Shown here piece by piece: positions 16,002 through 42,503 of a stretch of 42,503 bases of DNA (its first letter is position 1; the number at the start of each line of letters is the position of its first letter). The notes below the pieces were generated by a model, which was not told where the DNA came from, searched no databases, and saw only the letters and a list, made by a program, of their open reading frames with translations. Location: IMG/VR virus record IMGVR_UViG_3300028610_000429; one strand, given 5' to 3'. Position numbers and translations under genes: made by a program. The DNA comes from a virus.

Positions 16002-16517
16002 TCATTCTTCTTCTATCTCCTTATGAAGAGCTTCTTTGATTTCTTCACTTGTTTTAGCTACGACTTTTAAAATGTTTGTGTTCTTCGTTAAGAAGATATT
16101 CAAGGCAGGTCTCAACATTAAGGCTTCTTTTCCAATTGGTTTATCCATTTCTATTCTACTCACTTCCCACATTTTCTTGAAATCTGATGGCGTTGGAATT
16201 ACTTTTCCTTTCTCTATCTGCTCAACAGCCTTTTCCATTACAATCTTTGTCATTTCTAAGATTCGTTCTTTGCTTAATACTTTATCATCCACAGCCGTTC
16301 TTTTAACTATATCTAATACTGAATTATCCATTGCCCTAGTTTTTCTCACCCAATCATTTCCAACACTCCAAACCCTTAAACTACCCATGCTTACTTTTAT
16401 GCCTTTTTTGATACAAAGTTGATCTAATTTTTTTAGACTTCTACTCTTACCTAAATTGAAATAAATAAAGAATGCTTCCTTCTGTTTTATCTCTGATTTA
16501 GTTAGTAGTTTTTTCAT
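16002..16517 (-). CDS. 171-aa putative DNA-binding protein; candidate small terminase subunit
   Basis: N-terminal HTH-like segment (SRSLKKLDQLCIKKGIKVSMGSLRVWSVGNDW). It lies upstream of the packaging genes. The functional call is weak. Confidence 0.35.
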   Translation of the reverse strand: MKKLLTKSEIKQKEAFFIYFNLGKSRSLKKLDQLCIKKGIKVSMGSLRVWSVGNDWVRKTRAMDNSVLDIVKRTAVDDKVLSKERILEMTKIVMEKAVEQIEKGKVIPTPSDFKKMWEVSRIEMDKPIGKEALMLRPALNIFLTKNTNILKVVAKTSEEIKEALHKEIEEE

Positions 16518-17210: not shown

Positions 17211-18800
17211 TTATTTTTTATCTTTTTCCTCTGGTAAATCGACTATTACAACCTCTGTTATTAAGAATAGAGAAATTACACTCACTGCATTTTCTAATGC
17301 TACTCTTACAACTTTTGCTGGGTCTATTATTCCTGCCTTTAGTAAATCAACATATTCTCCTGTTGCTGAATTATAACCTCTTGACACACTGTCTTTTGTC
17401 TTTTCTAATATAACATCTGGCTTACCTCCTGCGTTAAGAATAATCTGCTTGGCTGGTTCTCTGATTGCGTTGTATAAAATTCCTAATCCTAGTCTTGTAC
17501 TCATATTCTTTTCTAATAACATTTTCTTTTCTATTTCTTTCGAAGCTTGAATCAGGGTCATTCCAGCGCCAGGTACAATTCCTTCCTCGATTGCTGACAT
17601 TGTAGCTCGAACTGCGTCTTCAATTCTGTATCTCTTTTCTTTGTTCTCTTGTTCAGAGATTGTTCCTACTTTAATTATAGCAATACCACCTTTAAGTTTA
17701 GCAATTCTCTTTTTCAATAATTCTTTCTGATAGTCTGATTCTTCTTTCTTCATTGCTAAAGTTAACTCTTTGATCCTTTTATTGATTGCTGACTTACTGC
17801 CTCCACCTCCAATAATTGTAGTTTTGTCTTTACTTATAATTACTCTATCGGCTTGCCCTAATTCAGTTAATCCTACATCTTCAACTTTTATTCCTATTTC
17901 TTCAGTAATTAACTTAGCTCCTGTAAGAATAGAAATGTCTTGTAGTTTGTTTTGTTTGTCATTTCCATAACCTGGAGCTTTAACTGCTGCAATTCTAAGT
18001 TTTCCTCTAATCTTGTTTAAAACAACAGTAGGCAATGCTTCACCGGAAACGTCATCAGCTATAATTAAAAGAGCTTTATTATCAGCTCCATAAACTTCGT
18101 CTAATACTCCAATGATTTCTTCGTTAGTGCTGATTGCTTGAGATGTTACTAATATATAAGGTTTTTCTATAATAGTCTCCATTCTCTCGGGATGAGTTAT
18201 CATGTATGGAGAAATAAAACCTTTATCAATCTGAAGTCCTTTGACTATCTCTTGCTGGAGTCCAATAGTATGAGATTCTTCTACTGCTATAATTGCGTCT
18301 TTACCAATCTTTTTAATAATATCTGCAATAGTTCTTCCAATCTTAGCATCCCTTGAGGCGATAGTTCCTACACTCTCGACATCTTTATCTTTAGTGAGTG
18401 GCTTGGCCATCTTTTTAATTGTTCCTACTGCTATTTCTAAACCCATAAGCAAACCTTTCTTTAACTCAATTACATCTACACCTGCGGCCATAGCTTTTAA
18501 TCCTTCTTTTAAAATATGTTGAGCAAGAATTGTAGCCGTCGTGGTTCCGTCTCCTGCTTCCTTATCAGTCTTGTTAGCTATATCTTTGACTAAATCACAG
18601 CCCATAGCTTCAACAGGGTCTTTCAGTTCTACATTATTAGCCACAGTAACTCCGTCTAATGAAAAAGTAGAAGTTCCTTTTTTGAAAGCGACCACTCTTC
18701 CTTTAGGTCCTAAAGTAACCTTGACTGCATTAGATAGAATGTCTACTCCTTTTTGAAGCTTCTTTCTAGCCTCGTCAGAAAATAGTATTTGTTTGTTCAT
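17211..18800 (-). CDS. groL: Chaperonin GroEL (Cpn60), phage-encoded
   Basis: 529 aa. The N-terminus ([31 protein letters not shown]) is GroEL-like and the nucleotide-binding motif is [12 protein letters not shown]. Similarity extends over the full length. The protein ends ...DLPEEKDKK with no Gly-Gly-Met tail. Confidence 0.9.
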
Positions 18801-19095: not shown

Positions 19096-19629
19096 TTAGT
19101 TTATATTTTTATGAACTTCTATATGGCATTTTCGACATAATGTAACGCCATTTTCTATAGATGTTCTCAATTTTTTGTTTCTTGCAAAACTTTTAATGTG
19201 ATGTGCGTTTAGTATCAATTTTCTTTTTCCACACTCCTGGCAAGTCCAATTATCCCTCGCAAAGACTGATTCTCTCCATAGTCGATATTCAATACTCCTT
19301 CTTATTTTATCATTTTCGGTGGTAACACCTCCTTTCCAAGCTGGATTTTTACTTCCCCGATAATGTGGAGGAGTAGCCCACGGGCATTTCTTCCCTTTCA
19401 ACGCCTCGCTAATTTTCTTGCTAACTCTCTTCTTATATTCTGGGTTTTTCCATCTTTTTTTAGAAGACTGAGCTATTTTCTTTTTTACTTTTTTAGTATG
19501 TTTCCTACCTATATTTATTTTTCTTAATTTCTGCTTAGTTTTTTCTGTTGTTACTTTCCCCAGATTTATCTTATCTCCTTTCTTAAACCACCCTTTGTTT
19601 TTTCCACTCTTTGGAATTCCTTTTGGCAT
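19096..19629 (-). CDS. HNH homing endonuclease (NUMOD-like basic N-terminus, C-terminal HNH)
   Basis: NPAWKGG...WR..VF.RD..TCQECG...LNAHHIKSF...NGVTLCRKCHIEVH. It sits between groES and groEL. Confidence 0.8.
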   Translation of the reverse strand: MPKGIPKSGKNKGWFKKGDKINLGKVTTEKTKQKLRKINIGRKHTKKVKKKIAQSSKKRWKNPEYKKRVSKKISEALKGKKCPWATPPHYRGSKNPAWKGGVTTENDKIRRSIEYRLWRESVFARDNWTCQECGKRKLILNAHHIKSFARNKKLRTSIENGVTLCRKCHIEVHKNIN

Positions 19630-19631
19630 TT

Positions 19632-19919
19632 TTAAGATATCTTAGCAAATATATCTCTCTCTCGACAAACAAGATACTCTTCTCCATCTACCTTAATTGA
19701 TTGTGGTATAAACGGATCTAAAATAATAATATCTCCTACTTTCAAATTAACTTTCCTAAATTTTCCACTTTTGTCTATTTCGCCAGGACCAACAGCAATA
19801 ACCTTTGCTTTTGAAGGCCTAGATTTAGAAACATCAGCTAATACTATTCCTGATTTTGATTCTTTTTTCTTTTCCCATAGAAGAAATACAAAATCATTGA
19901 GAGGTTTTATTTTTAACAT
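19632..19919 (-). CDS. groS: Co-chaperonin GroES (Cpn10), phage-encoded
   Basis: 95 aa. IKPLNDFVFL...SGIVLADVS...AKVIAVGPGE...LKVGDIIILD...EEYLVCRERDIFAKI matches the GroES pattern along its length. Confidence 0.85.
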   Translation of the reverse strand: MLKIKPLNDFVFLLWEKKKESKSGIVLADVSKSRPSKAKVIAVGPGEIDKSGKFRKVNLKVGDIIILDPFIPQSIKVDGEEYLVCRERDIFAKIS

Positions 19920-20010: not shown

Positions 20011-20151
20011 TTAATCTTCTACAAGCAAGGCAAAGAGAAGAATTAAACATGCAACTCCTACTCCTAACCAAAGTGTACTTTGTTGAAAATAGGCAGCTAT
20101 CAAACTAGCGATACCACTAAATAATAAAAATGCTTCTACTAATTTTTTCAT
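20011..20151 (-). CDS. 46-aa two-helix membrane peptide (below the track threshold)
   Basis: The ATG at 20151 overlaps the ninG TGA (ATGA). Translation is MKKLVEAFLLFSGIASLIAAYFQQSTLWLGVGVACLILLFALLVED. Confidence 0.4.
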   Translation of the reverse strand: MKKLVEAFLLFSGIASLIAAYFQQSTLWLGVGVACLILLFALLVED

Positions 20152-20537
20152 GTATTTTTTAATTTATCTTTATAGAGTTTGACTAAACACTCTAATTCTT
20201 CAATAGTATGTTTTTTAACCGGCATGTGTTTCAGTTGCATAAGTTCTTCGATAATTCCTTCGCCATAGTCCTTAATTAGATGTAAAGCATATTCGTCCAT
20301 TCTTCCTCCTTTAAATCGATTACAAGTAGTACATTGAGCATGAACATCTCTTTCGTCCCACCTGGTTCTCATACAACCTCGCTTGATATAGTGTCCTGCA
20401 TCCATTTCTTTAAGGTCTTTTATAGTTGTGCAGGTATAACAATAACATAATCCATCTTCATCAGTATCTCTTTGACGAATAAATTTAGAAAATACGTCAT
20501 CAAGTTTTTTAACTAATCTTTGTCTTTTGCTTTTCAT
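20148..20537 (-). CDS. ninG: NinG/Rap-like recombination endonuclease
   Basis: FIRQRD...CYTC...DAGHY......W.ERDVHAQCTTCNRFKGG...Y parallels lambda NinG (FIRERDRDLPCISCG...WDAGHY...[20 protein letters not shown]). Confidence 0.7.
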   Translation of the reverse strand: MKSKRQRLVKKLDDVFSKFIRQRDTDEDGLCYCYTCTTIKDLKEMDAGHYIKRGCMRTRWDERDVHAQCTTCNRFKGGRMDEYALHLIKDYGEGIIEELMQLKHMPVKKHTIEELECLVKLYKDKLKNT

Positions 20538-20733: not shown

Positions 20734-21054
20734 TTAACCCCACGAATCAAACCTCTCTCTGTGTTCATCTGTTAAAAGATGTTTTAGCCGCCACTCTTTA
20801 TCTTCTTTTTCCATTCTTTCTCCTTCAAACTTTTTTAATTCTATTGGATTTCGTGGCTTTGGATTATAACTTGCTATTAAAAATTCAAGTTCCTCTGATT
20901 TTTTGATATTTTTCTTAATCTGATTTTCTTCTACTGCTTGGGCAACAGTTTTTACTTTCTTATTTCTGTTCTTATATTCTTCGAAAGTGTCATAATCTTC
21001 GAAAAATCCTTGAAACTTTAGTGCAACCCATAGAGATTCTTCTCCGCTAATCAT
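20734..21054 (-). CDS. 106-aa acidic protein, unknown
   Basis: Track ORF. It overlaps the ninB stop. Confidence 0.55.
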   Translation of the reverse strand: MISGEESLWVALKFQGFFEDYDTFEEYKNRNKKVKTVAQAVEENQIKKNIKKSEELEFLIASYNPKPRNPIELKKFEGERMEKEDKEWRLKHLLTDEHRERFDSWG

Positions 21055-21440
21055 ATCTCAATCTCATTGGGCAAAGGTATTTTTACATCGTGTTCTGTTA
21101 AAGCCCATATTCTAATTTTCTCAAGTAACATTTCAAACTCTGTGGTGGTTAGATCGGTAGTGCTTCTAACTGTTTCTAAAATTCCCCCAGTTTTTCTTAA
21201 AAACTCTAGCTTTAAAGCATCGTGCATTTCTTGAGTTGAATAGCCAAATTCGTCTGCTAACATTTTAACTACTACACCAAAATAATAATTGTTTTGAGGC
21301 AAACTTCTTGATGTCTTATACTTTCTTAAAATTACTTGAATTTTCTTTCCTTCAAAAGTTTTTTTATAACTTCTAAAAGTTTCAGGAGCTTTTAAAAATA
21401 TCTTTCCTTTTTCTACTTTGCCTTCAAAAATTGGATTCAT
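21051..21440 (-). CDS. ninB: NinB/Orf-family recombination mediator
   Basis: RSLPQNNYYFGVV...STTDLTTTEFEMLLEKIRIWA parallels lambda NinB (RSLDQNRKLWACL...STSRMRVGEFAELLELIQAF). Confidence 0.6.
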   Translation of the reverse strand: MNPIFEGKVEKGKIFLKAPETFRSYKKTFEGKKIQVILRKYKTSRSLPQNNYYFGVVVKMLADEFGYSTQEMHDALKLEFLRKTGGILETVRSTTDLTTTEFEMLLEKIRIWALTEHDVKIPLPNEIEI

Positions 21441-21927: not shown

Positions 21928-22914
21928 TTATTTTTTATTAGTTAATAATTGACCTTTAATTTTCTCAATATCAAACCCAGCTTTTTCTATTTCTACTAAT
22001 TTTTCTTTATTACTTTCGGTCATATCTTTTCCGTCCTCCATTCTTGTCAAAACTCTGTTCCAACTACTAATTATTGGAGCATACTTCTCATAAAAATCTT
22101 TAGGTTCTTTGAAGCCATACAATTTAGTTAAATAGCCAGAATACTCAATCTTCCAGTTTTTAGTAAATCTATCACCATTAAATTCAATAGGTTTTTCTAA
22201 TGGAGGTTGCTTGTCTTCTTGATGATATTTAGTAATAGTTTCAATAGCTTTTTTATACTTTTCTTCTACAACTAAAGAATTAAACACTGGCATTTCAATC
22301 ATTCTACAATCGTCTTTACAGACATAGAGAATAGATCCTTTTTGCATATCTTTAGCTTTTAGATAGTGAAATAATTGTAGTTCGTGTCCTGTGGATGGTC
22401 TCCCATCCTTTTTCATTTTATCAAACATAAAACTTGATGTTGATTTCATTTCAATAATTCGTGTTTCAAGTCCATTAGGATAGTTTTTTTCTAAATGCTG
22501 AACTATACTCTCCCCAGCTTTAATTATCTTTGGTGGTAACTCCATTTGTTCTAAAAATGCCCTATCAAAATTAGGTTTGCCTCCTGCTATATAATCTAAT
22601 TTACCAGTTACCTTTAAAAGTCCAGGATATTGATAAGCGACCCAATCCTGTTGACTGATTAAGATTCCAGCCCTTTGAAGAATTATAGCCACAAGCCATT
22701 CCCAGATATTCCCAGCTTCAAACTTTCTTCTTGACCTTGCATTAGGAGGATTAGTTGGTTTTACTCCTTTGAGCTTTAACCAAGTATCTATTGGAGCATT
22801 GTCCAATTCAGAAGCCCACAAGCGTTCTCTTGGTTCATATTTCCTATTGTTATCTCCAGCAAGTGCTTCGTTCCAAACTCTACCTATACCCCAAACTTTA
22901 TTTTCCGTAGTCAT
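21928..22914 (-). CDS. PD-(D/E)XK exonuclease (RecB / lambda-Exo / Cas4-like)
   Basis: It carries GKLDY (Asp), IIEMKST (E-x-K) and HELQLFHY (QxxxY) motifs in the canonical order. Confidence 0.55.
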   Translation of the reverse strand: MTTENKVWGIGRVWNEALAGDNNRKYEPRERLWASELDNAPIDTWLKLKGVKPTNPPNARSRRKFEAGNIWEWLVAIILQRAGILISQQDWVAYQYPGLLKVTGKLDYIAGGKPNFDRAFLEQMELPPKIIKAGESIVQHLEKNYPNGLETRIIEMKSTSSFMFDKMKKDGRPSTGHELQLFHYLKAKDMQKGSILYVCKDDCRMIEMPVFNSLVVEEKYKKAIETITKYHQEDKQPPLEKPIEFNGDRFTKNWKIEYSGYLTKLYGFKEPKDFYEKYAPIISSWNRVLTRMEDGKDMTESNKEKLVEIEKAGFDIEKIKGQLLTNKK

Positions 22915-24475: not shown

Positions 24476-24817
24476 TTATAATAATGTTTGTTGTTTCCTT
24501 ACAGCTTTTATTCTAGCCTTTGCAATTTTACAATAATCAGGCTCTTTTTCTATTAAGATAAAAGGTCTATCAGTTAATTTACAAGCTATGCCTGTTGTTC
24601 CTGAACCAGCGAAACAATCCAAGACTATTCCTCCTGTTGGTGTTTTAGTTAGGGTGCATAGATATTCCATTAGTTTTATCGGTTTGACTGTTGGGTGGTT
24701 GTTTTTGGTTAACCGTATCTCTTTATGTTCACCTTTTAAACTTGCTCCACCTAACTGCATTTTATCTGTTATGTTTGCATCCATAGAACCACCTCTTTTT
24801 TCCTCCAATTCCTCCAT
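24476..24817 (-). CDS. C-terminal fragment of an N6/N4 DNA methyltransferase (truncated; the DPPY catalytic motif is absent)
   Basis: HPTVKP...VLDCFAGSGTTGIA...ILIEKEPDYCKIAKARI is the SAM-binding C-terminal half of beta-class MTases. Only about 40 aa precede it, and in-frame stops lie just upstream. Confidence 0.65.
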   Translation of the reverse strand: MEELEEKRGGSMDANITDKMQLGGASLKGEHKEIRLTKNNHPTVKPIKLMEYLCTLTKTPTGGIVLDCFAGSGTTGIACKLTDRPFILIEKEPDYCKIAKARIKAVRKQQTLL

Positions 24818-24844: not shown

Positions 24845-25393
24845 TCATGACACCTGTGAAATGAATAATTGCTTTTGAGTTTTTGGATCCTTTTCAATTC
24901 CTATTATTACATGGCCATCTTTTATATAAAATCCCTCCCAGTATTCTTCGTCACTTGAGAAATCTTTAATTGTTACTTGGTGTTTTTCTCCTAACCAATA
25001 ACCAACTTGACGTCCTATTACTTTGCTTTTAATAGCATATTTTGGAATTGACTTGCCTTTTAGAAAATCAGCTCCTTTTGGTGTCAAGCAATAATTTCCA
25101 GGTTGTTTTCTGACCTTTGCAATTAATCCGTGAAGTCTAGGTCTAGTTAAGTTTCCAACCATATTAGAAGTTAGATGTCCGTCTTTGATCATTAAGTCAT
25201 AGTTTGGTGTTGCAGGAACTTCCATTTCTTTACGAGGGTGTACACAATTAATTCCTTTGTTCAAAATTACTTTGGCGACTGCTTTTAAAATATCAACTGC
25301 TCCTGGATCAATAGGAATTAGATATGTTTTACTTTGACCACAACAATCGCACTTCTCTGGTATGTATTTTTCTTGTAATTTGAAACTGCTCAT
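24845..25393 (-). CDS. 182-aa protein, unknown
   Basis: Track ORF with an N-terminal CDCC motif. Confidence 0.6.
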   Translation of the reverse strand: MSSFKLQEKYIPEKCDCCGQSKTYLIPIDPGAVDILKAVAKVILNKGINCVHPRKEMEVPATPNYDLMIKDGHLTSNMVGNLTRPRLHGLIAKVRKQPGNYCLTPKGADFLKGKSIPKYAIKSKVIGRQVGYWLGEKHQVTIKDFSSDEEYWEGFYIKDGHVIIGIEKDPKTQKQLFISQVS

Positions 25394-25869: not shown

Positions 25870-26132
25870 TAATCTATTATTTCAGGACAATACCTGCTAC
25901 TAAAAATGATCGTTTCTTCATTGTAATTATCATAGACTTCTTTACGAGAAACTTCTTTTACTGGATCTTGTTCAGTAATGCCTTTAAGAAGATAGCATTT
26001 GTCATCACAACATCTGTAAATTTTCTGCCATTCAACCACCTTATCTGGTTCTCTAATAGGTTTTACTTGGCATAACGAGTATTTAGCTATTAAAAGTAAA
26101 ATTGTTATTAAAATCGTAAGTTTAAGTTTCAT
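25869..26132 (-). CDS. 87-aa secreted or membrane Cys-containing protein
   Basis: The N-terminus MKLKLTILITILLLIAKYSLC looks like a signal sequence. The gene is in the early region. Confidence 0.55.
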   Translation of the reverse strand: MKLKLTILITILLLIAKYSLCQVKPIREPDKVVEWQKIYRCCDDKCYLLKGITEQDPVKEVSRKEVYDNYNEETIIFSSRYCPEIID

Positions 26133-26680
26133 ACTTTTGCAAATGTTAATTTTTTAGAAAGTTTTTTTCTACCACTTCTAATATCTTTTAAAGAAAATTC
26201 TTTTTTTGGTTTTTCTTCTTTTTTAAAATTTTTAATAATTTTTTTCTTATTATTAATAGTATAAGAATTATTAGTATAATTATTGGTTCGTCTAGACGAA
26301 TAGCTTTTACTTAGAAGCTGTTTGTTTGTACGAATAGCTCTGTTCGTCTGTACGAATAGCTTGTCTGTATAGCTGTTCGTTTTAACGAATAGCTTTTGAT
26401 GTCCGAACCTAACTGTATCTATAAATTTTTCACTGCTTATTTTTTTAATTCTAACACTCAAAGAACTTATTGATTTTATTCTTAGTAGTGGCATATCTTC
26501 TAGTAAGGTTTTCAAATTTATCCATGTCCAAACAACACCGTCTTTTACAACTCTTTGCTTTTCTATCTTTTTATTTTTGCTATTGCAGTAAAAAACTATG
26601 TAATCAAGAATTGCTCCATCTACAACATCAAGAGTTGTTTTTGATAATACTAATTGATTGATGTTGATATTGTATTTCAT
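26129..26680 (-). CDS. Replication organiser / origin-binding protein (lambda O-like logic)
   Basis: 183 aa with a winged-helix-like N-terminal half. The gene contains four phased iterons (26287..26394) followed by an AT-rich stretch, as in lambda O/ori. Confidence 0.45.
   Translation of the reverse strand: MKYNININQLVLSKTTLDVVDGAILDYIVFYCNSKNKKIEKQRVVKDGVVWTWINLKTLLEDMPLLRIKSISSLSVRIKKISSEKFIDTVRFGHQKLFVKTNSYTDKLFVQTNRAIRTNKQLLSKSYSSRRTNNYTNNSYTINNKKKIIKNFKKEEKPKKEFSLKDIRSGRKKLSKKLTFAKV
26287..26394. repeat. Iteron array: four copies of ACGAATAGCT, each embedded in a TTCGT-N4-ACGAA-type inverted repeat; candidate replication origin
   Basis: Inverted repeats lie at 26287-26300, 26321-26334 (degenerate), 26343-26356 and 26376-26389. 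ACGAATAGCT lies at 26296, 26330, 26352 and 26385. Spacings are 34, 22 and 33 bp, close to multiples of 11. The AT-rich block 26220..26285 is adjacent. Confidence 0.6.
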
Positions 26681-26682
26681 TG

Positions 26683-27006
26683 TTAAACTGACCCTTTATA
26701 TTTTTTATGTAATGCTTTATATTTTTTAAATTCTGCTAAATCGTGCCTATTAACTTTTCCATCTAAATAAGGTTTTATATATTCCAAAAATTCTTTTTTA
26801 GTTCTATTGCTTTTGGCGCAATTACACCACTGACAAGCAAGAGCTAAATTTTCTCTTTCATCTCCACCTTTCTTACTTTTAGGTTTGATGTGATCAATGT
26901 GAATAGGTATATTCTGTTCTGCATCTTCTAATAAATCACAATGACAATAATAACACTCGCCTTTTTGTTTTACGTAGAGAATAATTATTAAACCTTTATT
27001 TATCAT
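26683..27006 (-). CDS. HNH endonuclease (small HNHc type)
   Basis: CYYCHC...IHIDHIKPKSKGG...NLALACQWCNCAKSN. The track start at 27021 is TTG; the ATG is at 27006. Confidence 0.75.
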   Translation of the reverse strand: MINKGLIIILYVKQKGECYYCHCDLLEDAEQNIPIHIDHIKPKSKKGGDERENLALACQWCNCAKSNRTKKEFLEYIKPYLDGKVNRHDLAEFKKYKALHKKYKGSV

Positions 27007-27008
27007 GT

Positions 27009-27134
27009 TTAGTTGAAACAATTAAATAAACAAAACCCATTTTCTATTAATGCAATCATTATTCCAAAGCCGATCAGGACAAACATCCAAGCTAATCCCT
27101 CATAAAATACTTTTTTAATTGGTTCTTTATTCAT
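27009..27134 (-). CDS. 41-aa membrane peptide (below the track threshold)
   Basis: MNKEPIKKVFYEGLAWMFVLIGFGIMIALIENGFCLFNCFN. Its start is nested in the stop region of the preceding peptide gene. Confidence 0.35.
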   Translation of the reverse strand: MNKEPIKKVFYEGLAWMFVLIGFGIMIALIENGFCLFNCFN

Positions 27135-28351: not shown

Positions 28352-28371
28352 GGGAGATAATTTTATCTCCC
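28352..28371 (-). terminator. Hairpin GGGAGAT-AAAATT-ATCTCCC at the 3' end of the HNH gene
   Basis: A 7-bp stem overlaps the stop codon of 28363..28980. It is followed by ACTATTTC and then immediately by the -35 of P3. Confidence 0.5.
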
Positions 28372-28980
28372 TGCATTTCGGACTTTGCGTCTGAAATACT
28401 TAATGTAAGACTTAAACCTCTTTTCAAAATTCTTTTCTTTACCTCTAGTCAAAAGGTGGCATTTCTTGCATAAAGTTATTCCATTGCTTAGTTCAAATCT
28501 TAATTCTGGATAATCAACCCATCTTTTTACATGATGAGCTTCTAAATTTTTACCTCTTTCTTTACACAACATACAGGTATAATCGTCTCTCTTGAAAACC
28601 TTATTCACCCATTGTATATTGTCTTTATTTCTTAATGGTCTACATTTTAATTTACTTCTATCTTTTACCCATCTGATGTTGTTTTCTCCAGTATAAAAAG
28701 AATGCCGACATTTAGCAGAACAAAAGTTATGTTTATGTTCTCTTATTTTGTTCCATTTAGCTATAGAAGAATGCACAAAATAATCTTTCTTGCAGTTATA
28801 ACAAATAAATTTTACTTTTTCTTTTACTCTAGATTTTCCCATACACTCGTAAGAACAATACTTTCCTATCTTTATATAACTCGGTTTTACATAAAATTCT
28901 TTTTTACAAATAGGACAAACGAGTATTTTTCCTTTTCTTGTTCTTCCTCCTGTTTTTTTTCTTCCTTTTTTAAATAACAT
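28363..28980 (-). CDS. HNH homing endonuclease (free-standing cassette)
   Basis: VFKRDDYTCMLCKERGKNLEAHHVKRW...[13 protein letters not shown]. It has N-terminal CxxC zinc ribbons, its own extended -10 promoter, a structured leader and a hairpin terminator. Confidence 0.8.
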   Translation of the reverse strand: MLFKKGRKKTGGRTRKGKILVCPICKKEFYVKPSYIKIGKYCSYECMGKSRVKEKVKFICYNCKKDYFVHSSIAKWNKIREHKHNFCSAKCRHSFYTGENNIRWVKDRSKLKCRPLRNKDNIQWVNKVFKRDDYTCMLCKERGKNLEAHHVKRWVDYPELRFELSNGITLCKKCHLLTRGKEKNFEKRFKSYIKYFRRKVRNAGR

Positions 28981-29726: not shown

Positions 29727-30518
29727 CTAAGTAGAAACGTGAACATCCCATCTGTCGCCACAGAACTTGATTTTGGCTACGCCTGTCTTCACAGGGTACA
29801 TATTTTTCCTTTCAGCGTACGAATACTCGTACTCTAAAAATCCGCCTGTAAGAACGTAATATACTTTCTTTCTGTCTACACGTGAACCTCTGCCGATCTT
29901 TTTCAACTCTCTTTTCTCAAGAGTCAAAGACATTAATTCGTGTGTATGTCCATAAAGATAAACGTCTGCGAGAGTATGATTTGATGTCCTCATAGCAGCT
30001 GTTATCTTTGTGTGTGGATACCAAGCACTAGAACTTCCGTGTTGGGCGTGTATTACATATCTTCGTCCGCCAACTGTTAAGCCAACAAAACAAGAATATC
30101 CGCCATAGGGAACTCCTAGTCTTTGGGCCAATACTTCAGAAACCTTGATTCCTGAACTTTTCCAAATTCTATGTTCATGGTTACCGTCTAGGACTACGAT
30201 TATCTGGTCTTTAATAGGTTCTAGGATGTCATATAAAACATTTAATTGAGTCTGTGGCGGATTAACTTGTTCCACCCATCCAGCACCAACTGATGTTTTA
30301 GAAGCACATTCCATTAGATCTCCCATTAAGATAACCCTACTTCCTGACTTTTTTATATAGGTAACAGTGTCTAAAAATTTCTGAATGTTGCAAGTAGGTG
30401 CTCCTAAATGCACATCTCCCAAAGGGATTAATTTCATCTCGTCTTCAGAGCATCTGTATTCTATAGATTCTATTCCGTCTGGTTTTCCTCTAAATAGTTC
30501 TTCTATTGTTTCGTTCAT
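29727..30518 (-). CDS. Calcineurin-like metallophosphoesterase (lambda NinI / PP-like or Mre11-like fold)
   Basis: It carries GDVHLG, GDLMEC, GNHE and GHTHE motifs in the canonical order. A strong SD (GGAGGTGA) lies 8 nt upstream of the ATG. Confidence 0.75.
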   Translation of the reverse strand: MNETIEELFRGKPDGIESIEYRCSEDEMKLIPLGDVHLGAPTCNIQKFLDTVTYIKKSGSRVILMGDLMECASKTSVGAGWVEQVNPPQTQLNVLYDILEPIKDQIIVVLDGNHEHRIWKSSGIKVSEVLAQRLGVPYGGYSCFVGLTVGGRRYVIHAQHGSSSAWYPHTKITAAMRTSNHTLADVYLYGHTHELMSLTLEKRELKKIGRGSRVDRKKVYYVLTGGFLEYEYSYAERKNMYPVKTGVAKIKFCGDRWDVHVST

Positions 30519-31000: not shown

Positions 31001-31567
31001 TTATATTACCATATTAATATAATGATTAGACTTCTTTTTATTATCTGAAGCCCATAGAGGTTGTAAGTTGACTAAGCTCCAGCAACTTTTAAACTCTTTG
31101 TTTTCAACTGTTTTATACTTGAATAAACTTTTCGGCTTTCGGTGATCAATATGCCACTCGCCATAATTTTCAAAACTCATTCCTTTTTTAAAATTTACGC
31201 TTAGTCTTTGCATTAGTTTTTCTAAAGTATAGCCAACTAATGTTTCCCAGCTCGCCCCAAATTTCTTTCCTTTAAGTGCAAGCCATATAGCCGTTGCCAT
31301 ATTCCCATCAAGATGAAATTTTGGGTCTTTTCTTTTTCTTTCTCTTTCATATTTTCTCCTTAATTTATTTATTTGTTCTCGATGTTCTTGCCGATATTTT
31401 TGCTGATATTCTTTTCTATCTTTTTTATGTTCTTGCTGATATTTTTCATGATATTGTTTTGGATTGTCGCAATAACTTCCATCTATATAACTAGGATTAT
31501 TTTTTCCTTTTTTAAATCTTACTCCAAACTTATGTCCTTTTTGAAAACCCTTAATTCCTTTTGGCAT
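31001..31567 (-). CDS. HNH endonuclease (H-N-N type), free-standing cassette
   Basis: WHIDHRKPKS...NLQPLWASDNKKKSN. The track start at 31591 is a TTG inside the leader; the ATG is at 31567. The N-terminus MPKGIKGFQKGHK is identical over 13 aa to that of 38988..39461. Confidence 0.75.
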   Translation of the reverse strand: MPKGIKGFQKGHKFGVRFKKGKNNPSYIDGSYCDNPKQYHEKYQQEHKKDRKEYQQKYRQEHREQINKLRRKYERERKRKDPKFHLDGNMATAIWLALKGKKFGASWETLVGYTLEKLMQRLSVNFKKGMSFENYGEWHIDHRKPKSLFKYKTVENKEFKSCWSLVNLQPLWASDNKKKSNHYINMVI

Positions 31568-31580
31568 AATCTTAAAATTA

Positions 31581-31630
31581 AACACTCCCAACTGCTAGGC
31601 GGGGAGTGTTGTATAAAAAAGACCTAGCAG
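31581..31630 (-). promoter_or_regulatory. Structured 5' leader with two interleaved helices (A:A' 8 bp, B:B' 9 bp) upstream of HNH gene 31001..31567
   Basis: The minus strand reads CTGCTAGG-12nt-AACACTCCC-CG-CCTAGCAG-TT-GGGAGTGTT-TAATTTTAAGATT-ATG. Confidence 0.6.
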
Positions 31631-31701: not shown

Positions 31702-32232
31702 TTAGCTTCTCTGCTGATTTTTGTACCACTTGATATAATTGGCTATCTTGCTACCCGGACACACTGTTGGTTTGATATTTTTATGAACATAGATCTCTGA
31801 AAAAGGTATTCCGTGCTTGATTCTTAGCCTATCTAAAAGTTTTTTTAATTCTACTTTCATTTCTTCTGTGAACTTTGTATTATCTCCCATTACACAAACT
31901 CCTATAGAATTTTTGTTCCAATAACCAGGTCTTGCTTTCTCTACACAATGCGCTCCTTCTTCGTTGTCGGCTCTTGCTTGGAATAACTTACAATCAAGTT
32001 GTAAAAAATAATGATATCCGCAATAAAACCCTATACTACTTTTAAATCCCCATTTTTGTTTGTGCCAATTATCAACTGAAGCGAAATTATTCCCAGTTCC
32101 GTCATAGTGAACAACTATAGCAACAGGTACAGGAAGATTAGGAACAGTAAGCTTTTGCCTCAATATAAGAATTCTTAATTGAAGAAAAAAGATTTGTATT
32201 TTGAGTCTTATTTGTTCTAATGAATAGTTCAT
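31702..32232 (-). CDS. N-acetylmuramoyl-L-alanine amidase endolysin (Amidase_2 / T7-lysozyme / PGRP fold)
   Basis: VVHYDGT...WHKQKWGF...GYHYF...GAHC...NKNSIGVCVMG...HKNIKPTVCPG parallels the zinc and catalytic positions of T7 lysozyme. The N-terminus (IQIFFLQLRILIL) is moderately hydrophobic. Confidence 0.8.
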   Translation of the reverse strand: MNYSLEQIRLKIQIFFLQLRILILRQKLTVPNLPVPVAIVVHYDGTGNNFASVDNWHKQKWGFKSSIGFYCGYHYFLQLDCKLFQARADNEEGAHCVEKARPGYWNKNSIGVCVMGDNTKFTEEMKVELKKLLDRLRIKHGIPFSEIYVHKNIKPTVCPGSKIANYIKWYKNQQRS

Positions 32233-35200
32233 CGCATTTTTAATGATGGTAACTCCATTTTTAATGATTCTTTTTTTAACACGTCTCCCATTTTTAAGGA
32301 TGGCATTCCAGGAATTCCTTTCTTCCCTCTCTTTCTTTTCATTCCTAGCATATATTCACTCCATCCAAGCATTAAACCTATTCCCTCTCGCCAATCTTGT
32401 TCTAATAATTTTTGAACTGCTTTAGGCAATCTTAAAAGATATTTTGCAGGAACTCCAAAGTTTTCACTAGCCATGACCATTTCTCCAAGAGCATCTTTCA
32501 TGTCTTCTGCTGTTATGTCGTCAAAATCTATTTTAGAAAGAACATTTCCAACCTCTTGTATAGCTTGATTTATTGGTATTCCTATTTCATAGACTCTCAT
32601 TCCTAGGGCCTTTCTCAAAGCCCAATCTAACATGTCTCCAAAAATAAACAATCCATTTAAAGAACCAAAAATCATAGCTCTCCTATATTCTTCGTTATCT
32701 TCATCGGCCCAACCACCAAAATTACTTACCCACTGGAAAACAAGTGGTAGTAAAATGTGATAAATGAATAATGTTTTAGCTACCTTTTTTAAGTTTGCAG
32801 GAGTAGTTCCTCCTTTTTGAAATAAACTACTAACAGCATTAAGTTCTTTGGCTAAGTATTGTGCTGGGTTAGACTTAAACATTGAGAAAAGAGTTTCTAA
32901 ACTTCCTCCTTTCTGAAATGCTGTTAATCGGGAAATGTCTGATGATTGCTGTGTTTCAGATCCAAACTCTTCATATTCACTAACTGCTTCTGATAAACTC
33001 AAACCTTTTTTAAGTGCTACCCTTCTCATTATCCAGGAACCTGTTGTTATAGATCCAAGATCTCCAAGCATTATATTCATCATTGCCATATTTATAAAAC
33101 TGTTGACCTTAGAAAATCTATCATAAACTTCAGTTTTCATTGCGGCCTTGATATCTCTCTCGATATTTCCTTGTGTTCCTCTTGTTCTAATAAAAACACT
33201 TTCTTTAGCCATTATTTTGTAATTCTTGATTGGGTTTTTCCAAAAATCAACAAAGCCTGATGCAAACTCTACTGGTGTCACATCTTCTAAATAAGCTAAT
33301 GTAGCCGTAAATTGTTTAGCAGCTAAAGCAGGTTTTAACATCAATACACCTATTGTAAATTTCTTTCTGAACCAATCAACAGCTCCATGAAGTTGTCCAC
33401 GAGTCCTTCTATTAAAACCGATATCATCAATACTATTCTGTATTTCTCTTAATAGTTTGTTTCCAAATTCTTGATCGATAGACTCCCTGACTTTAGGATC
33501 TGAAAAGATATTATCCAATTCTCTGACCTTCTTCGCCCAAGCTATAAAATAATTAGTATCTGTGATATGTCTATCTAGTGCGTACAGACTACCCTGTTTA
33601 GCAATAGGTAAAATGTTTTTCCTTCTACTAATAAAGCTCTTACTCGTTACACCTCTTCTGTAATTAGCTTCGTCTAACAAGACTTCAAAACCTTGTTTTG
33701 TGTCAACTTGATATCCCTCTCTCATAATTGGAGAATAGAACTCATTGAAAGGAAGATCTACACCAAACATTTCTTGATAAAGAGGGTTTATTTTTTCATG
33801 TTGTTTTCTGTAAAGATTTAACTGCATATTAGCCAATCTAATCTCTTGTTTCGTAAGAGTAGAAGTAATAGCATCTTTAATCTCATTAGTGTAATAATTG
33901 CCCTGTAAAAAGCTTTGTTCTAGTGTTGGGTCCTTAAACTCCATATATCTCTTAATCATTTCGTCCTTAGTCATTTTAAGTTCTATTTTAGTTCCGACAT
34001 TGTTTATAAAAGTACCAAGATTTATTTCTTTTTTAAGTTTTCCAATTTCATCTCCTATTCTCAAAGGAAGCATTAAAGAATCTTTAGTTGTTTGATTAGG
34101 AATATCGTAGATTTCAGCAAACATTCTGTTAAAGTCATTAATATAACTTTCTTGCAATTCTTTTTGTTTATTATCTTGATCTAAAACAGAGAATCTTTTG
34201 TTAAGGGTCTTTTTATCAACTGGAGTATGCCGGTCCAAAATACGCATTAATCCTGGCCAACTCAAAACAAAATCATTTCCTAAAGATCTAAGAGAATGAA
34301 TCATTTTTCTTCTCCAAGTCATTCTTGCTCTTCCGACTGTCTCTCTGCCTTTTACTATTCCTTTATAATCAGTTACTACGTCAATAATGTATTTTTTCTT
34401 TCGATCTAAATCTTCCTGAATGTTAAATTTCCTAAGAGATGAGGCTACATCTCCTGTTTCCTTCATTTTTCTAATCATACCCAATAAACTTCTTAAACTT
34501 TTAGCGTCCCTAGAGCTCATACTTAAAATCCTATTCTGTAACGCAATCTCTGCCGGCATTGGCTTTAACTTATACTTTTCAAGATTGCTATCTATTTTCT
34601 CTTCAGCTTGAATTTGAGTAAGTCCTATTGCTCCTCTTGTAGAATCTAAAACACGCTGAACATCAGCTGTAAATTTTCCTATTGGTTTTCCTGCTACAAT
34701 TTTAGGTTTTACCGCTTTCAATTCTTTCTTGATATCAGTTTTTAGTCTCCTAATTTCGCTTGATTCCGCTAAACTAACAATTCTTTCTTGAATCTCTGGG
34801 AGTTTAGATTGTAATTGCTCAGGTGTTTGAATGTTTTTGATTACTCTTCTGAATTTTGCTTTGTCTTTAAGTTCTAATTCTGACTTATCTATAAAATCAA
34901 CCAATTCTGACTGAACAGCTTTAATTTGTTGCTTGGTTACAATAACACCTGTTCTTGCCCCTCTTGCTAGGTTTTTAAATCTTTCTTTTAAAAGGGTAGT
35001 CTCTCTCATTGTTATTTTTTTAGATACAGGAATTCCTAACAACTTCTTTACTGAAGGTGGTTTCACTACTTTTTCTTTTGGCTTAACTTCTTGTGCTTTG
35101 TTGTAAAAATCTTTTATCCTGTCAAACTCTCCTTCAAAATTTAACAATGGAGCTTGGTCATTAAACACGATAGGTATTGTTTTATCTCCTTTTTCTATTG

Positions 35201-38040: not shown

Positions 38041-38991
38041 TTATTCTATTGTTATGTCATTTGTCCATAGAATAGCGAAGTCTTCTATGCTTAAATCTCT
38101 CGTTTGGAGAGGTTCGACATATACACTCTCACTCCTTTGCAAATCGTTTATTATTAGGTTTCTTAACATTCCACCTACAACAGAAGTTAATCCTGCTTCC
38201 TTTCCACCATCATACATTCTCCAGTATCTCTCTGCCATAGTAGGATCTTCTAAATGTTGATAGTAAAGCGCTAATGGTCTGAAATAAAGTAGTGGATGAA
38301 ATTCTCCTGGAACATGTGAAAATTCTCCTATTGTATAAGATTCAGTTTGTCCGGTAAAAGTAGTTCCTTCAAATCCTTTAACTAACTCTAATGCTAAAAC
38401 ACCTGTAATAGAATCAATTTCATACCATCTAAAATCTCCATAGGTATAATCTATTCTCATATAATTTCCTATGGCGTTTGTGGCCCAAGCGGTATCTGTT
38501 CCACCTACTGTTTCGTCTCCATTCGTAGCGGCTGCAATAGTTCCGGTCGTGTAATCTGCAAGAGATAAATCTCTTAATCTTCTAGTTCCTCTTATTTGAA
38601 TCTCGCTATCTGCTGTAGCTGGTTCTGGCCACAATAAAACCTTATTGCCTTCTTTCATAAAGAATCTTGTTATATCAGAGTCTCCTGACTGCATTGACTG
38701 TAAATACTCCCAAAATCGAGGATCTTCTACTGGTCTTGGTCTATAAATAACTCCACCATCCATCGTTATTTTAACACTTCTAATACTTTGAATTTGATTA
38801 GGAATTTGATAACCCTCTTGTGAAGCAACAGTACCTACAGTATCGGTTATTTCAAGAGATAAAAGAGGTGCTTTGGCTGACACTATTTTATTAGTATCAT
38901 TAACCCACCTTTTAAAAATAGTTAATTGAGCAGCAGAAGTATCTCCTGTGATATTTTGAAGCTCTGTATATAATTCTTGAAATGATTTCAT
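38041..38991 (-). CDS. 316-aa structural-module protein (adaptor or tail component candidate)
   Basis: Track ORF with ordinary globular composition. Confidence 0.55.
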   Translation of the reverse strand: MKSFQELYTELQNITGDTSAAQLTIFKRWVNDTNKIVSAKAPLLSLEITDTVGTVASQEGYQIPNQIQSIRSVKITMDGGVIYRPRPVEDPRFWEYLQSMQSGDSDITRFFMKEGNKVLLWPEPATADSEIQIRGTRRLRDLSLADYTTGTIAAATNGDETVGGTDTAWATNAIGNYMRIDYTYGDFRWYEIDSITGVLALELVKGFEGTTFTGQTESYTIGEFSHVPGEFHPLLYFRPLALYYQHLEDPTMAERYWRMYDGGKEAGLTSVVGGMLRNLIINDLQRSESVYVEPLQTRDLSIEDFAILWTNDITIE

Positions 38992-39461
38992 CTTTTTGAA
39001 ATTAATTTATAATTTTTATTAAAATTGCTTCCATAAGTATCGGTTTTCTTATGGCAATCCCTACAAAGTGTTCTTCCATTATCTATCGCAAATCTTAATT
39101 CTGGGAATAAAGCAAATGGCTTTATATGATCTGCTTGTAAGTTTCCACCTTTATCATCTCCGCAAAAAACACAAGTATAGTTATCTCTTTCAAAAACTGC
39201 TTTTCGCCAAATTTTATATTCTTTTGATTTTCTTAATCTATCCAATTCAGGATAATCTTTCATCTTTCCACCCTTCCAATTTGGATGATTTTTACCACAA
39301 GGAAACTTATAAGCATTTGGGTATTTTTTTCTTCCTTTCATCCATTTACCAACTCCTATTCTTTTATGAGTTTTACTTATTTTAGTTCCTGCTTTTTTTC
39401 TTGCATTTTTGGAAACTAAATCTTTATGACCTTTTTGAAATCCTTTTATTCCTTTTGGCAT
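38988..39461 (-). CDS. HNH homing endonuclease inserted between structural genes
   Basis: NHPNWKGG...WRKAVFERDNYTCVFCG...LQADHIKPF...NGRTLCRDCHKKT. The track start at 39497 is TTG; the ATG is at 39461 (MPKGIKGFQKGHK). Confidence 0.8.
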   Translation of the reverse strand: MPKGIKGFQKGHKDLVSKNARKKAGTKISKTHKRIGVGKWMKGRKKYPNAYKFPCGKNHPNWKGGKMKDYPELDRLRKSKEYKIWRKAVFERDNYTCVFCGDDKGGNLQADHIKPFALFPELRFAIDNGRTLCRDCHKKTDTYGSNFNKNYKLISKR

Positions 39462-39471
39462 ATACTGAATT

Positions 39472-41265
39472 TTATCGTTTACTTTGGTTAAATTCAATGA
39501 GCAATTCTTCTATCTCTGGAGAACTCTCTGTCCCCCGAAGTTCTATTTTAAATTGAATCCATTTTGACCTTTTTGCTATCTTATAAAGCTGTTTAGCGAC
39601 TGTCTGGCTTGAAATTGCTCCTAACTTAGTCCAATTCATTAGTCTTGCGTCTGCGTCTCCTGAAGCCCCAGGTATCGCTTCGTCTATAGTAACAGTATAA
39701 GTTGGATCTGTATAACTCACAGCTGAAATATGTGCTGTTGCTCCTGCTCCCTTTCCTACTATAATCTCAACTTCTTGGCCTACAGCGGCATAAGCGAACA
39801 TTGCTTGAGTAGAAGTAAAAGTTTTCGTACTTGTCCAAGTTATTTCGTTTGCTTTAACGTACCCGGTTGTATGGTATAAGTTTGAATTTTTATCATTTCT
39901 ATATTTTACTACTATTCTGTCTGTGGAATTTTCTAATTTTTTAAATGCTATATTTAATCTCTTCCAAAAAGCTCTTACATTAGAAGAAGCAATTTGTGTT
40001 GTCACAAAATATCCTCTATTAGTAACACTGCTTTTTACTTGAGAAGTTAGTATCGCCTTAATAGTGGTTGACTCATTATCAGAATAAACAGAACAACCTG
40101 CTAAAAATCTTCCTTGTGAAGGGTTAGTTTCTACTAAAGCGCCATTTGGTCCAAAATTACCTGCCCCCCAATCATTGTCGGTAGATCCATCGTATTGTCC
40201 TACAGAGTATTTATGATAAAGACCTACATCTTTGTCATAAACCCATATTCCTCCAAGCATATTTTCTAGTAATAAAAATCCATTTCCGGGATTACCAGGA
40301 GAAGCATCTAAAAGTATATGGATTCTATTTCCGATAAGACACATTCCGTTGTGATGAACCATTTGTAAAATAGTAGAGTTATCTTCCCAAGTTATTCCAC
40401 TTTCAGTTATTGGAAGAGCAGCTACTTCAGCAAACCCTTCACCGTCATAAGCTAATAATTGCCCCTTTCCGTTTATTGTGTGCATTACACCATTCTCGTC
40501 TACACAACCAGCCCAAGAAATATCGCTATCTGGAGACAAAGGAGAATCATAGGTTTCGCTTGTTCCATCCCAAGGGAAGATTAACCCTACACCCCCCCTT
40601 ACATGTTTTGTTCCTATATACACTCTGTACCCATCATCAGCAACCCACACTATCTCATATTCTTTCGGTAAAGTTATCCTATTTTCTACCACAACCAAAC
40701 TGTCATCTATTGTATGAATTGTGTTTATATTAGTTACTAAAAGTAAATTTATAAATTTATGGAGAATATGTTTTCCAGCCGTTAAAGCTGTTCCACTTAA
40801 AGTGGTTTGCCACCAAGACGTGTCCCAAACTCCGTTATTAAGCATTGATAAATCAGTATTCCTTGCCACTATTAATCTGTCATAACTATTAGCCTGACCA
40901 AAGATTTCCATATCTGTCATTGCCGCAGTTGGAGTATCTCCTATAGCATCTTGCGTCCATCCTACTAAAGGATCAGTATTAGTTGTTTTAAACATTAATC
41001 CATCAGTTGAAGCCGCAAGTGCAGATTGAGTCAAAGCCCACCACCTATCTGTTTTATCTGCATCACTTCTTATAAACTTTGCAGCAGTCTCAAGATCAGC
41101 GTCATCTCCACTATCAACCAACCTATAAATCCTTTCTGATAATCTTATTTTTCCTTTATTTGCTTCTAAGTCTATGTTTTTAGTTGCCCAAAGATTACCA
41201 AGAACTTCTCCTCTTGAAGCTCTGACGAATCGTTTTGTTTCTGGATTTGGTATGGTTATTTGCAT
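39472..41265 (-). CDS. 597-aa large structural protein (tail or nozzle candidate)
   Basis: Track ORF, beta-rich and Trp/Gly-rich. It is flanked on both sides by HNH genes. Confidence 0.55.
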
Positions 41266-41834
41266 TTTATAATTTTAGTAAATTCTTTTTCAAAACTTTT
41301 TTCTTTTCTTTTTGTTAAGTTGTGGCACTTTTTACAAAGTGTTATTCCGTTGTTAATTTTAAATCTTAATTTAGGATATTTTACAGATTGTTTTATATGG
41401 TGTGCCTCTAAATATCCACCTCGCTTTTTGCATTTTTGACAAGTAAATCTATCTCTCTCAAATACTGATAATCTCCACAATTTCCACTCAATACTATTAT
41501 AAATCTTATTTCTTTCTGATGTAACCCCTCCTTTCCAAGCTGGGTTTTTACTACCCTTCTTACCCTCACTCATTTTCTTTCTCGATTCTTTAGACATCTT
41601 CTTTCCTATGCCAATCTTACCAAATCCTTGCCTTATTGCATTTTCTCTCATCTTTTCTTTTGTTTCTTTAGAAACTATCTTACCTTTATGTCTTAAACTA
41701 TTCTGTCTTTTCCATTCTTCTGTGTGCTTATATCCCAAACTATTCTTGTGTCCTAAACAGTTTTTATTTCCTTTATTAGCTTCACTAATCTTTCTTGTAT
41801 GTTCTCTCGTTTGTTTATATCCTTTTTTACACAT
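41256..41834 (-). CDS. HNH homing endonuclease with NUMOD3-like repeats
   Basis: Repeated G.K.T.E.K.K.S motifs, then NPAWKGG...[16 protein letters not shown]...LEAHHIKQS...[13 protein letters not shown]. The track start at 41849 is TTG; the ATG is at 41834. Confidence 0.8.
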
Positions 41835-41845
41835 ATATTTTATGC

Positions 41846-42503
41846 TCAACGAAGCACATTCCTTGACTGGAGATATTCAAAAAATGAAAATTGCATTGTT
41901 TTCGCTGCTTCTGCATTTGTCGTAATTTCAAACCTCATTAAACTTATATTAGGAGTCGCTACCCTTGAAGGAAGATTCTCGTTTATTACTCCTTTTTCAT
42001 CTGAATCAACATAAAATACTATTTTACTTGCAGGAGTATATCTTGCCTCAACATTGAATTGAGCAGTAGTAATAGTCTGTAGTTCTACAGTCTTTTCAGT
42101 AGTTCCATCATAACTTACTCCATATAGAGTATTATTTACAACCTTAAACCCATAATAAGAGAATCCTTCAGTTATTTGTCCCACAATGGCATAGGCTGTA
42201 ATATCTGCTACGCTAGCAAAAATAAGAGTAGTTCTCATTCTACTTCTTTCCGAGAAAGTAATCACTCCTTGTTTTGCTGGTTGCTTAAACACAAATGCTG
42301 TATTGTCTTCTGCGGCAGAGGTTGTTATTTCAACCAATCCAAGAGTTAGATCCTGTGCATCAGCTGTAACAGAGAACCCATCTAAACTTTCAAAGAAAGT
42401 AACCCAATGGAATGTTCTCTTCCAAATTAAGTCAAAAATCTTATTTTCTAAAAACTTATCTACAGTTTTTTCTATGATGCTTTCGCTTTTTTTATCTAAT
42501 GGG
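41846..42503 (-). CDS. 3' segment of the wrap-around ORF (unique part 41846..42385; 42386..42503 duplicates codons also encoded at 1..118)
   Basis: The track entry 41846..42337 begins at an internal TTG. The frame stays open to the window edge and joins 186..1 once the duplicated 118 bp is removed. The C-terminal domain is beta-rich. Confidence 0.7.
42386..42503. repeat. Terminal direct repeat, right copy (identical to 1..118)
   Basis: Exact 118-bp duplicate of the left end. Confidence 0.95.

Follow-up and report, generated by a model that had tools for sequence, protein, structure and literature searches.

An origin made of iterons and an A/T-rich tract inside the gene of its own initiator is a textbook arrangement. 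In phage lambda the iterons lie mid-gene in O, with an A/T-rich tract 3' of them (PMC7466680), and oriL of SPP1 likewise combines repeats with an A/T-rich unwinding element inside gene 38 (PMC6316719). Rep of pSK41 has a winged-helix N-terminal domain (NTD) of 120 aa, four Rep boxes that lie centrally in the gene and encode a dispensable linker, and an essential, host-specific C-terminal domain (CTD) that binds DnaG (PMC5703833), while the iterons of RepA_N replicons are described more generally as semi-palindromes converging on a poly-A tract (PMC7145576). Here we analyse a 42,503-nucleotide stretch of viral DNA (IMG/VR record IMGVR_UViG_3300028610_000429; henceforth the window), in which an earlier reading of the sequence, the original prediction, had proposed a lambda-style origin within a putative initiator gene. 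Our analysis supports this interpretation: with a probability of roughly 80%, and judging from sequence comparisons, positions 26216-26394 constitute a theta-type replication origin located within the minus-strand gene (26129-26680) for the protein that recognises it. The twist with respect to the textbook arrangement is an initiator that has no CTD.

The putative origin is built around four copies of a dyad. The decamer ACGAATAGCT occurs exactly on the plus strand at 26296, 26330, 26352 and 26385, confirming the positions originally reported, and at up to one mismatch it has 7 matches in the window against 1.84 expected, a count reached by none of 100 shuffled sequences. A repeat search extended these copies to 24-nt units (26282-26305, 26316-26339, 26338-26361 and 26371-26394) with start-to-start spacings of 34, 22 and 33 bp. 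The original prediction had described a 14-bp inverted repeat, TTCGT-N4-ACGAA, perfect in three copies and degenerate in one (TTTGT); this core was recovered as described, but the true unit is longer, a 24-bp near-palindrome of the form AGCTnTTCGT-N4-ACGAAnAGCT (AGCTATTCGT-N4-ACGAACAGCT on the coding, minus strand) whose 10-nt arms converge on a short A/T centre. Perfect TTCGT-N4-ACGAA dyads are confined to the array when the whole 42.5-kb window is checked, short direct repeats are nowhere in the window packed more densely than in the array, and no alternative iteron cluster was found elsewhere in the genome. The spacings had also been taken to place all sites on one face of the helix, which is true only approximately: they fit a period of about 11.1 bp, while with a 10.5-bp period the outermost sites would be roughly half a turn out of register.

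Numbered in gene order, iteron 1 (26371..26394; coding strand AGCTATTCGT-TAAA-ACGAACAGCT) specifies the wing strand KLFVKTN and is the best copy, self-complementary at 20 of 24 positions. Iteron 2 (26338..26361; AGCTATTCGT-ACAG-ACGAACAGAG) encodes KLFVQTN and overlaps by 2 bp with iteron 3 (26316..26339), in which one arm is degenerate (ACAAA for ACGAA) and the frame gives AIRTNKQ. Iteron 4 (26282..26305; AGCTATTCGT-CTAG-ACGAACCAAT) adjoins the A/T block and is read in the third frame as SYSSRRTN. The four copies thus fall in phases 1, 1, 2 and 0, and since they span all three reading frames the repeat must be maintained in the DNA and not in the peptide. The reiterated KLFV(K/Q)TN linker of the original prediction accordingly holds for two copies only, the other two reading otherwise, and the KLFV copies lie in a folded domain. 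Between two of the iterons, at 26362-26374, the sequence TGTCTGTATAGCT resembles the right half of an iteron minus 4 nt (CGAA), and on this resemblance it may be a decayed fifth unit.

The array adjoins the 70 bp with the highest A/T content in the genome (26216..26285; 92-94% A+T), a putative DNA-unwinding element that encodes a disordered N/T/K-rich linker. The block had been reported as 26220-26285, abutting the array, and this segment is indeed 92% A+T; 26216-26285 is the only site in the window with a 66-nt stretch at that level (maximum 94%). In gene coordinates the iterons occupy nt 287-399 and the A/T block nt 396-465. Directly 3' of the last iteron lies a conserved minus-strand motif, AATAATTATACTA (26272..26284), for which the family consensus is AATAATAATACTA. 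Motifs resembling AATAATAATACTA, with no more than 2 mismatches, come after the array in 27 of 34 loci (gene nt 367-508), irrespective of iteron specificity and against a background of 0.125 per kb. An A/T-rich block likewise comes after the array in most relatives, and in about half of them the corresponding A/T maximum sits immediately 3' of the iterons.

The decisive evidence comes from relatives; the original prediction had named absence of the repeats from their homologous genes, together with an explanation as a mere peptide repeat, as grounds for abandoning the origin interpretation. We collected 74 homologues of the protein and surveyed 30 viral (IMG/VR) loci for repeats, 12 of them in detail. 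Repeats were present at the same position of the homologous genes: near-exact 12-nt direct repeats were found in 26 of the 30 loci, and 11 of the 12 loci studied more closely contain three to four dyad units, each 20-24 bp long, at gene nt ~290-460. For about half of the loci, no denser repeat cluster exists anywhere in the 10-20 kb, and the unit spacing falls into two common ranges, 21-24 and 30-34 bp (e.g., 33/22/34, 30/22/33 or 30/22/24). Searching IMG/VR with the array itself as exact DNA gave no match.

What is conserved between lineages is the layout and not the letters. Half-sites are lineage-specific (GTTCGT..ACGAAC, GTTCA..TGAAC, CGACAAC..GTTGTC, TTGAC..ATCAAC, GTTAG..CTAAC and ACGTTC..GAACGT), their two arms change jointly, and the copies within any one genome agree with each other; between the clade of the window and L001/L002, for example, all four copies switch together. 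With one exception, the half-site also tracks the sequence of the protein's predicted recognition helix: (A/S)(L/I)TPR goes with GTTCA, SLSVR and RVSER with GTTCG, ASISER with GTTAG, and QGILKR with GACAAC. The lineage switch from GTTCG to GTTCA is simultaneously a Val to Ile replacement in the wing strand (KLFV to KLFI; alignment columns 286-345), and site and reader could thus change by a single mutation.

Substitution patterns among the closest relatives, whose synonymous sites are near saturation (dS 0.5-1.8), point to selection on both the protein and the DNA. The NTD has dN/dS values of 0.04-0.13, and the iteron arms are invariant at 65 of 78 positions compared with 19 of 35 in the unit centres and inter-unit DNA (Fisher p=0.002) and 50 of 95 third-codon positions of the NTD (p=2e-5). 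These patterns show that the clade, although it has lost the CTD, is still under purifying selection.

The gene itself (26129..26680, minus strand), which contains the array, encodes a putative origin-binding initiator of 183 aa, as suggested by the open reading frame (ORF) and its 74 homologues. An AlphaFold2 model based on these homologues predicts a confident winged-helix DNA-binding domain at aa 1-110 (26351..26680, minus strand; pLDDT >90 over aa 11-110), with a recognition helix at about aa 71-83 and a wing hairpin at aa 87-101. The model then shows a disordered stretch (aa 111-142) and a short basic C-terminal tail (aa 143-183; 26132..26254, minus strand) with two weak, low-confidence helices. 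Iterons 1 and 2 (26338-26394) double as codons for the last wing strand of the winged-helix domain and the helix that follows (KLFVKTN, DKLFVQTN), and iterons 3 and 4 together with the A/T block encode the disordered stretch. The first nine residues, MKYNININQ (26654-26680), are nearly invariant across the family despite synonymous variation in the DNA, and in the model they belong to no regular secondary-structure element; they may serve in dimerisation or as a short motif for binding the host.

Structure searches place this domain among winged helices of more than one kind. Foldseek against the PDB retrieved MarR/SarX-type winged helices together with the RepA_N NTDs 4pql and 4pt7 (4PT7 is listed with the pSK41/pTZ2162 RepA_N NTD structures; PMC7145576). 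The latter two are among the best geometric fits (TM 0.41/0.55, rmsd 3.6-3.8 Å over ~105 columns), with Foldseek E-values of 0.14-0.2 that are no better than those for the MarR/SarX regulators. Against BFVD, the matches were mainly phage models named replication initiator, DNA replication protein or replisome organizer. A profile search against PDB sequences gave marginal MarR matches only (E 0.06-1.3), covering the recognition helix and wing alone, and Pfam MarR matched 8 of the 74 members with a best E of 0.0094. We rejected membership among MarR/PadR-type regulators, as the matches fall below the curated threshold and leave the dimerisation helices uncovered.

The function of the family emerges from its longer members. 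At E ≤1e-3 the N-domain family comprises 2,345 representative clusters, the best 150 of which are all close relatives and lead to no named family. The majority of members have 230-330 aa and consist of the conserved N-domain, a variable repeat-bearing segment, an N/T-rich segment and a CTD; at least 19 unrelated CTD clusters are found attached to the conserved NTD. The original prediction had suggested a search against lambda O, replisome-organiser and DnaD-like families. The protein in the window matches none of these, but full-length relatives do match such PHROGs: phrog_270 (‘replication initiation protein’) is matched by 17 of 74 relatives (best E 2e-28), phrog_9474 by 11, phrog_428 by 10 and a ‘primosomal protein’ family by 11, and other relatives match four ‘replication initiation O-like’ families, a ‘DnaD-like helicase loader’ or a ‘replisome organizer’ (P0016 is among the relatives carrying O-like or DnaD-like CTDs). 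The PHROG alignments are collinear and take in the winged-helix core (residues 46-230 and 5-179 for phrog_270 and phrog_428). Membership of the window's protein in phrog_270 and phrog_428 is only transitive, because its homologues match these families and it does not at E ≤1.

Gene neighbourhoods agree with this assignment. Six loci have a gene for a loader, helicase or primase-helicase no more than ~3.4 kb downstream of the homologue. Specifically, in L016 a DnaC/IstB-like AAA+ loader starts 10 nt downstream and is followed by a PrimPol-DnaB fusion; in L013 and L020 a putative ORF of 183-185 aa occupies the loader position, again followed by a PrimPol-DnaB fusion; L006 and L025 have a DnaB-type helicase directly downstream; and in L021 a DnaG-primase/helicase gene is found ~3.4 kb away. 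A ParB_N-methylase fusion of 412-427 aa was also observed downstream of the homologue in six relatives (e.g., L007:2763-4001).

The window differs from such loci in what it does not encode. Bases 1-118 are identical to bases 42386-42503, owing either to circular assembly or to a short direct repeat at the termini. This 118-bp terminal overlap shows that the genome (~42,385 bp) is present in full, and the absence of replisome genes can thus be judged on the whole of it. The claim that no polymerase, primase or helicase gene is present holds up on this complete genome within the reach of profile and motif searches, which recognised no loader either; no ORF of the window carries a canonical Walker-A/P-loop, and no ParA or TubZ NTPase is present. 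DnaA boxes occur in the window at chance level, with none near the array.

Taken together, these observations suggest how the locus might operate. Dimers of the winged-helix domain would bind each dyad, and the four bound units would assemble into a bent nucleoprotein complex, similar to the O-some, whose strain would melt the neighbouring A/T block. As neither a helicase or loader nor a primase or polymerase can be recognised in the complete genome, the replicative helicase, primase and polymerase then loaded at the melted block would come from the host. All ~63 genes of the window lie on the minus strand, so transcription would pass through the site and may help activation, as in lambda. Candidate handles for recruiting the host machinery are the short basic tail, MKYNININQ or a separate phage protein.

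Several points weigh against the origin reading, most of them concerning the protein. It has no Pfam or PHROG match even at E ≤1 and is tied to known initiators solely through its relatives, its predicted fold is a generic MarR-like winged helix, and two relatives are labelled PadR/MarR regulators by JGI. It also has no CTD, a domain essential in lambda O and pSK41 Rep, and the recruiting step is therefore missing. Five large ORFs of the late region have no annotation; by synteny they belong to a tail module, and none has a match among PDB sequences. A recombination set (Cas4-like exonuclease, NinB, NinG and SbcD-like protein) might sustain origin-independent replication. The skew analysis proposed in the original prediction was computed, but cumulative skew is monotonic because all genes lie on one strand, and GC skew consequently cannot locate the origin.

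The missing CTD deserves particular attention. The protein ends 41 aa past the A/T block, where the CTDs of relatives extend for 90-150 aa, and its two nearest relatives (142 aa) likewise end just after the A/T block without a CTD. We rejected the idea of a split gene, because the best E obtained when all family CTDs were compared with the window by tblastn was 0.03. One possibility is that recruitment falls to a separate partner, which may be, for example, a conserved 182-aa protein of novel fold encoded downstream (24845-25393, minus strand). This protein has 50 homologues on phage contigs of ~40 kb, is 74% identical in L032, the nearest relative without a CTD, and has a well-defined AlphaFold model (pLDDT 86.5, pTM 0.82) with no match by PDB sequence or structure, Pfam or PHROG. 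We rejected it as a hidden loader or primase: it has no PDB match, and its ‘GKS’ follows a helix and is not in a P-loop context. A more radical possibility, which we regard as doubtful, is a minimal initiator in which a 110-aa winged helix and an origin-encoded linker suffice without replisome genes or a recruiting CTD.

The same deficit could alternatively mean that the origin is a relic, i.e., that CTD loss ended initiation here, that replication starts elsewhere or by recombination-dependent priming, and that the protein keeps some other DNA-binding role. This would account for the missing CTD in the window and in its two closest relatives, and it is compatible with a family CTD encoded nowhere else in the window and with the recombination module in the genome. 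We nevertheless consider it improbable: the NTD is under the strong purifying selection described above, the iteron arms are conserved above neutral expectation within the CTD-less clade itself, the A/T block and its AATAAT..ACTA motif are retained, and the genome holds no other iteron cluster.

A second alternative is that the dyads form an autoregulatory operator array, in which a MarR-like factor binds its own gene and the in-gene sites act as a roadblock or silencer of a single-strand early operon. The MarR/SarA-like fold, the regulator names given by JGI to two relatives and the lack of a recruiting domain would all fit, and initiators of this kind often autoregulate as well, meaning that the two roles are not exclusive. 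On the other hand, the initiator-type CTDs of relatives, their matches to ‘replication initiation’ PHROGs and the loader, helicase or primase genes downstream in six loci speak for replication, and the conserved adjoining A/T block and four-unit geometry are hallmarks of origins. Operators, moreover, normally overlap a promoter, and a 1.5-kb region around the gene holds about as many promoter-like matches as chance would give (8 against 7.8 expected). A purely regulatory array thus seems quite improbable.

Far less probable still is a centromere-like or packaging site, at which a winged-helix partition protein (TubR/ParB-like) or a packaging adaptor would bind the dyads. The TubR structures 4asn and 3m9a do appear among the weak fold matches. 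The ParB_N-methylase fusions near relatives are, however, methyltransferases and not partition proteins, and lend this idea no support; the window has neither a ParA/TubZ NTPase nor any canonical P-loop ORF; TerS (16002-16517) and TerL lie ~10 kb from the array; and the CTDs and neighbours of relatives are replication proteins. Finally, an RNA-level or coding artefact (mRNA hairpins controlling translation or stability, or a duplicated peptide) is barely credible: the sense RNA of the array does fold better than shuffled sequences (z = -4.1), as expected from any set of dyads, but the copies are spread over three reading frames, share one sequence per genome and switch jointly, which argues for a common protein reader over independent hairpins, and they have conserved AGCT flanks outside the 5-bp TTCGT/ACGAA core, spacings of ~11n bp and no Rfam match.

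The locus offers an origin and an initiator, well supported and open to testing, for an uncultivated lineage of phages that is deeply divergent: TerL is at best ~25% identical to that of any GenBank phage, and tblastn of the window's initiator against GenBank phages found no match. It also ties a large and mostly unnamed family, only a minority of which match PHROG initiators, to replication initiation. With one winged-helix scaffold, many half-sites and many swapped CTDs, the family amounts to a natural specificity series that could be used to study how initiators and origins diverge and how incompatibility arises, and the CTD-less clade, found in a replisome-free genome, raises the question of how little a phage needs to contribute in order to take over a host replisome.

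Beyond the terminase genes, the genes recognised in the window encode a portal, a tail-fibre-like protein, an amidase, GroES, GroEL, NinB, NinG, a Cas4-like exonuclease, an SbcD-like phosphoesterase, a methylase fragment and at least six HNH/EndoVII-type endonucleases. Both chaperonin components are phage-encoded, with an HNH endonuclease gene and a 97-aa ORF between them (17211-18800, 19096-19629, 19632-19919). The free-standing HNH/EndoVII-type genes (19096-19629, 26683-27021, 28363-28980, 31001-31591, 38988-39497 and 41256-41849) represent an unusually high load for a 42-kb genome, to which NinG (20148-20537) adds a further member; one of them stops 2 nt ahead of the start of the initiator gene. 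NinG/Rap, NinB/Orf, the Cas4-domain exonuclease and the SbcD/Mre11-like phosphoesterase (20148-20537, 21051-21440, 21928-22914 and 29727-30518) make up a recombination set resembling the lambdoid nin region, which could serve a later, recombination-dependent mode of replication. Of the N6/N4 DNA methylase, the window contains only a 113-aa C-terminal fragment (24476-24817). Two short tandem arrays were seen at 32218-32267 (21 nt x 2.3) and 38969-39017 (19 nt x 2.5), the second at the junction of a tail-fibre-like gene and an HNH gene. Rfam and tRNA scans of the window returned no match.

Some indication of host range comes from family members binned in metagenome-assembled genomes (MAGs). L036 lies in Paceibacterota (81-kb contig), and L037 and L040 lie in Falkowbacteria (L040 on a 213-kb contig); other bins with family members are labelled Gammaproteobacteria, ‘Pacearchaeota’ and ‘Thaumarchaeota’, with the proviso that binning of phage contigs is unreliable. 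As three of ten genome-collection matches, including the two longest contigs, are in Paceibacterota or Falkowbacteria MAGs, the hosts may be CPR/Patescibacteria.

How, then, does the element relate to the systems described at the outset? The lambda comparison made in the original prediction is apt for the architecture and does not extend to detectable homology. The annotated iterons of lambda O are four copies of TCCCTC-AAAAC-GAGGGA at O nt 349-433, followed by the A/T tract and, downstream, by P. The window similarly has four dyad iterons mid-gene in its initiator (nt 287-399), with arms that meet at an A-tract. On their 3' side lies an A/T-rich tract, the stretch encodes the linker after an N-terminal DNA-binding domain, and both phages would rely on the host polymerase. 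By contrast, its units are 24 bp long compared with 18-19 bp in lambda, the NTD profile shows no detectable relationship to lambda O (hhalign probability 0.2%), and the Pfam matches of the 74 members include none to Phage_rep_O, RepA_N (at E ≤1), DnaD or replisome-organizer families. Lambda brings its own loader; the window has neither a C-terminal P-binding domain nor a P-like loader gene. SPP1 gp38/oriL shares with the window the placement of repeats and an A/T-rich element within the gene of the origin-binding protein itself, but SPP1 has its own loader and helicase (gp39 and gp40), and the window phage has neither. Among the initiators of PHROGs 270, 428, 9474, 4880 and 2514, relatives match collinearly, while the window's protein stays below the threshold of every model.

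The RepA_N replicons (Rep of pSK41 and pTZ2162, and the PLE RepA of Vibrio satellites) offer a further parallel. They too combine a winged-helix NTD of ~110-120 aa with four semi-palindromic boxes that converge on an A-tract, lie centrally in the gene and encode a linker, and they too show a conserved NTD with variable, swappable CTDs across the family. The differences are that the window is a lytic-type phage genome and not a plasmid, and that its protein lacks the essential CTD, which in pSK41 binds DnaG. By sequence the element belongs with none of lambda, SPP1 and pSK41; by analogy, it would work as their origins do, and its layout fits pSK41-type RepA_N replicons at least as well as it fits lambda.

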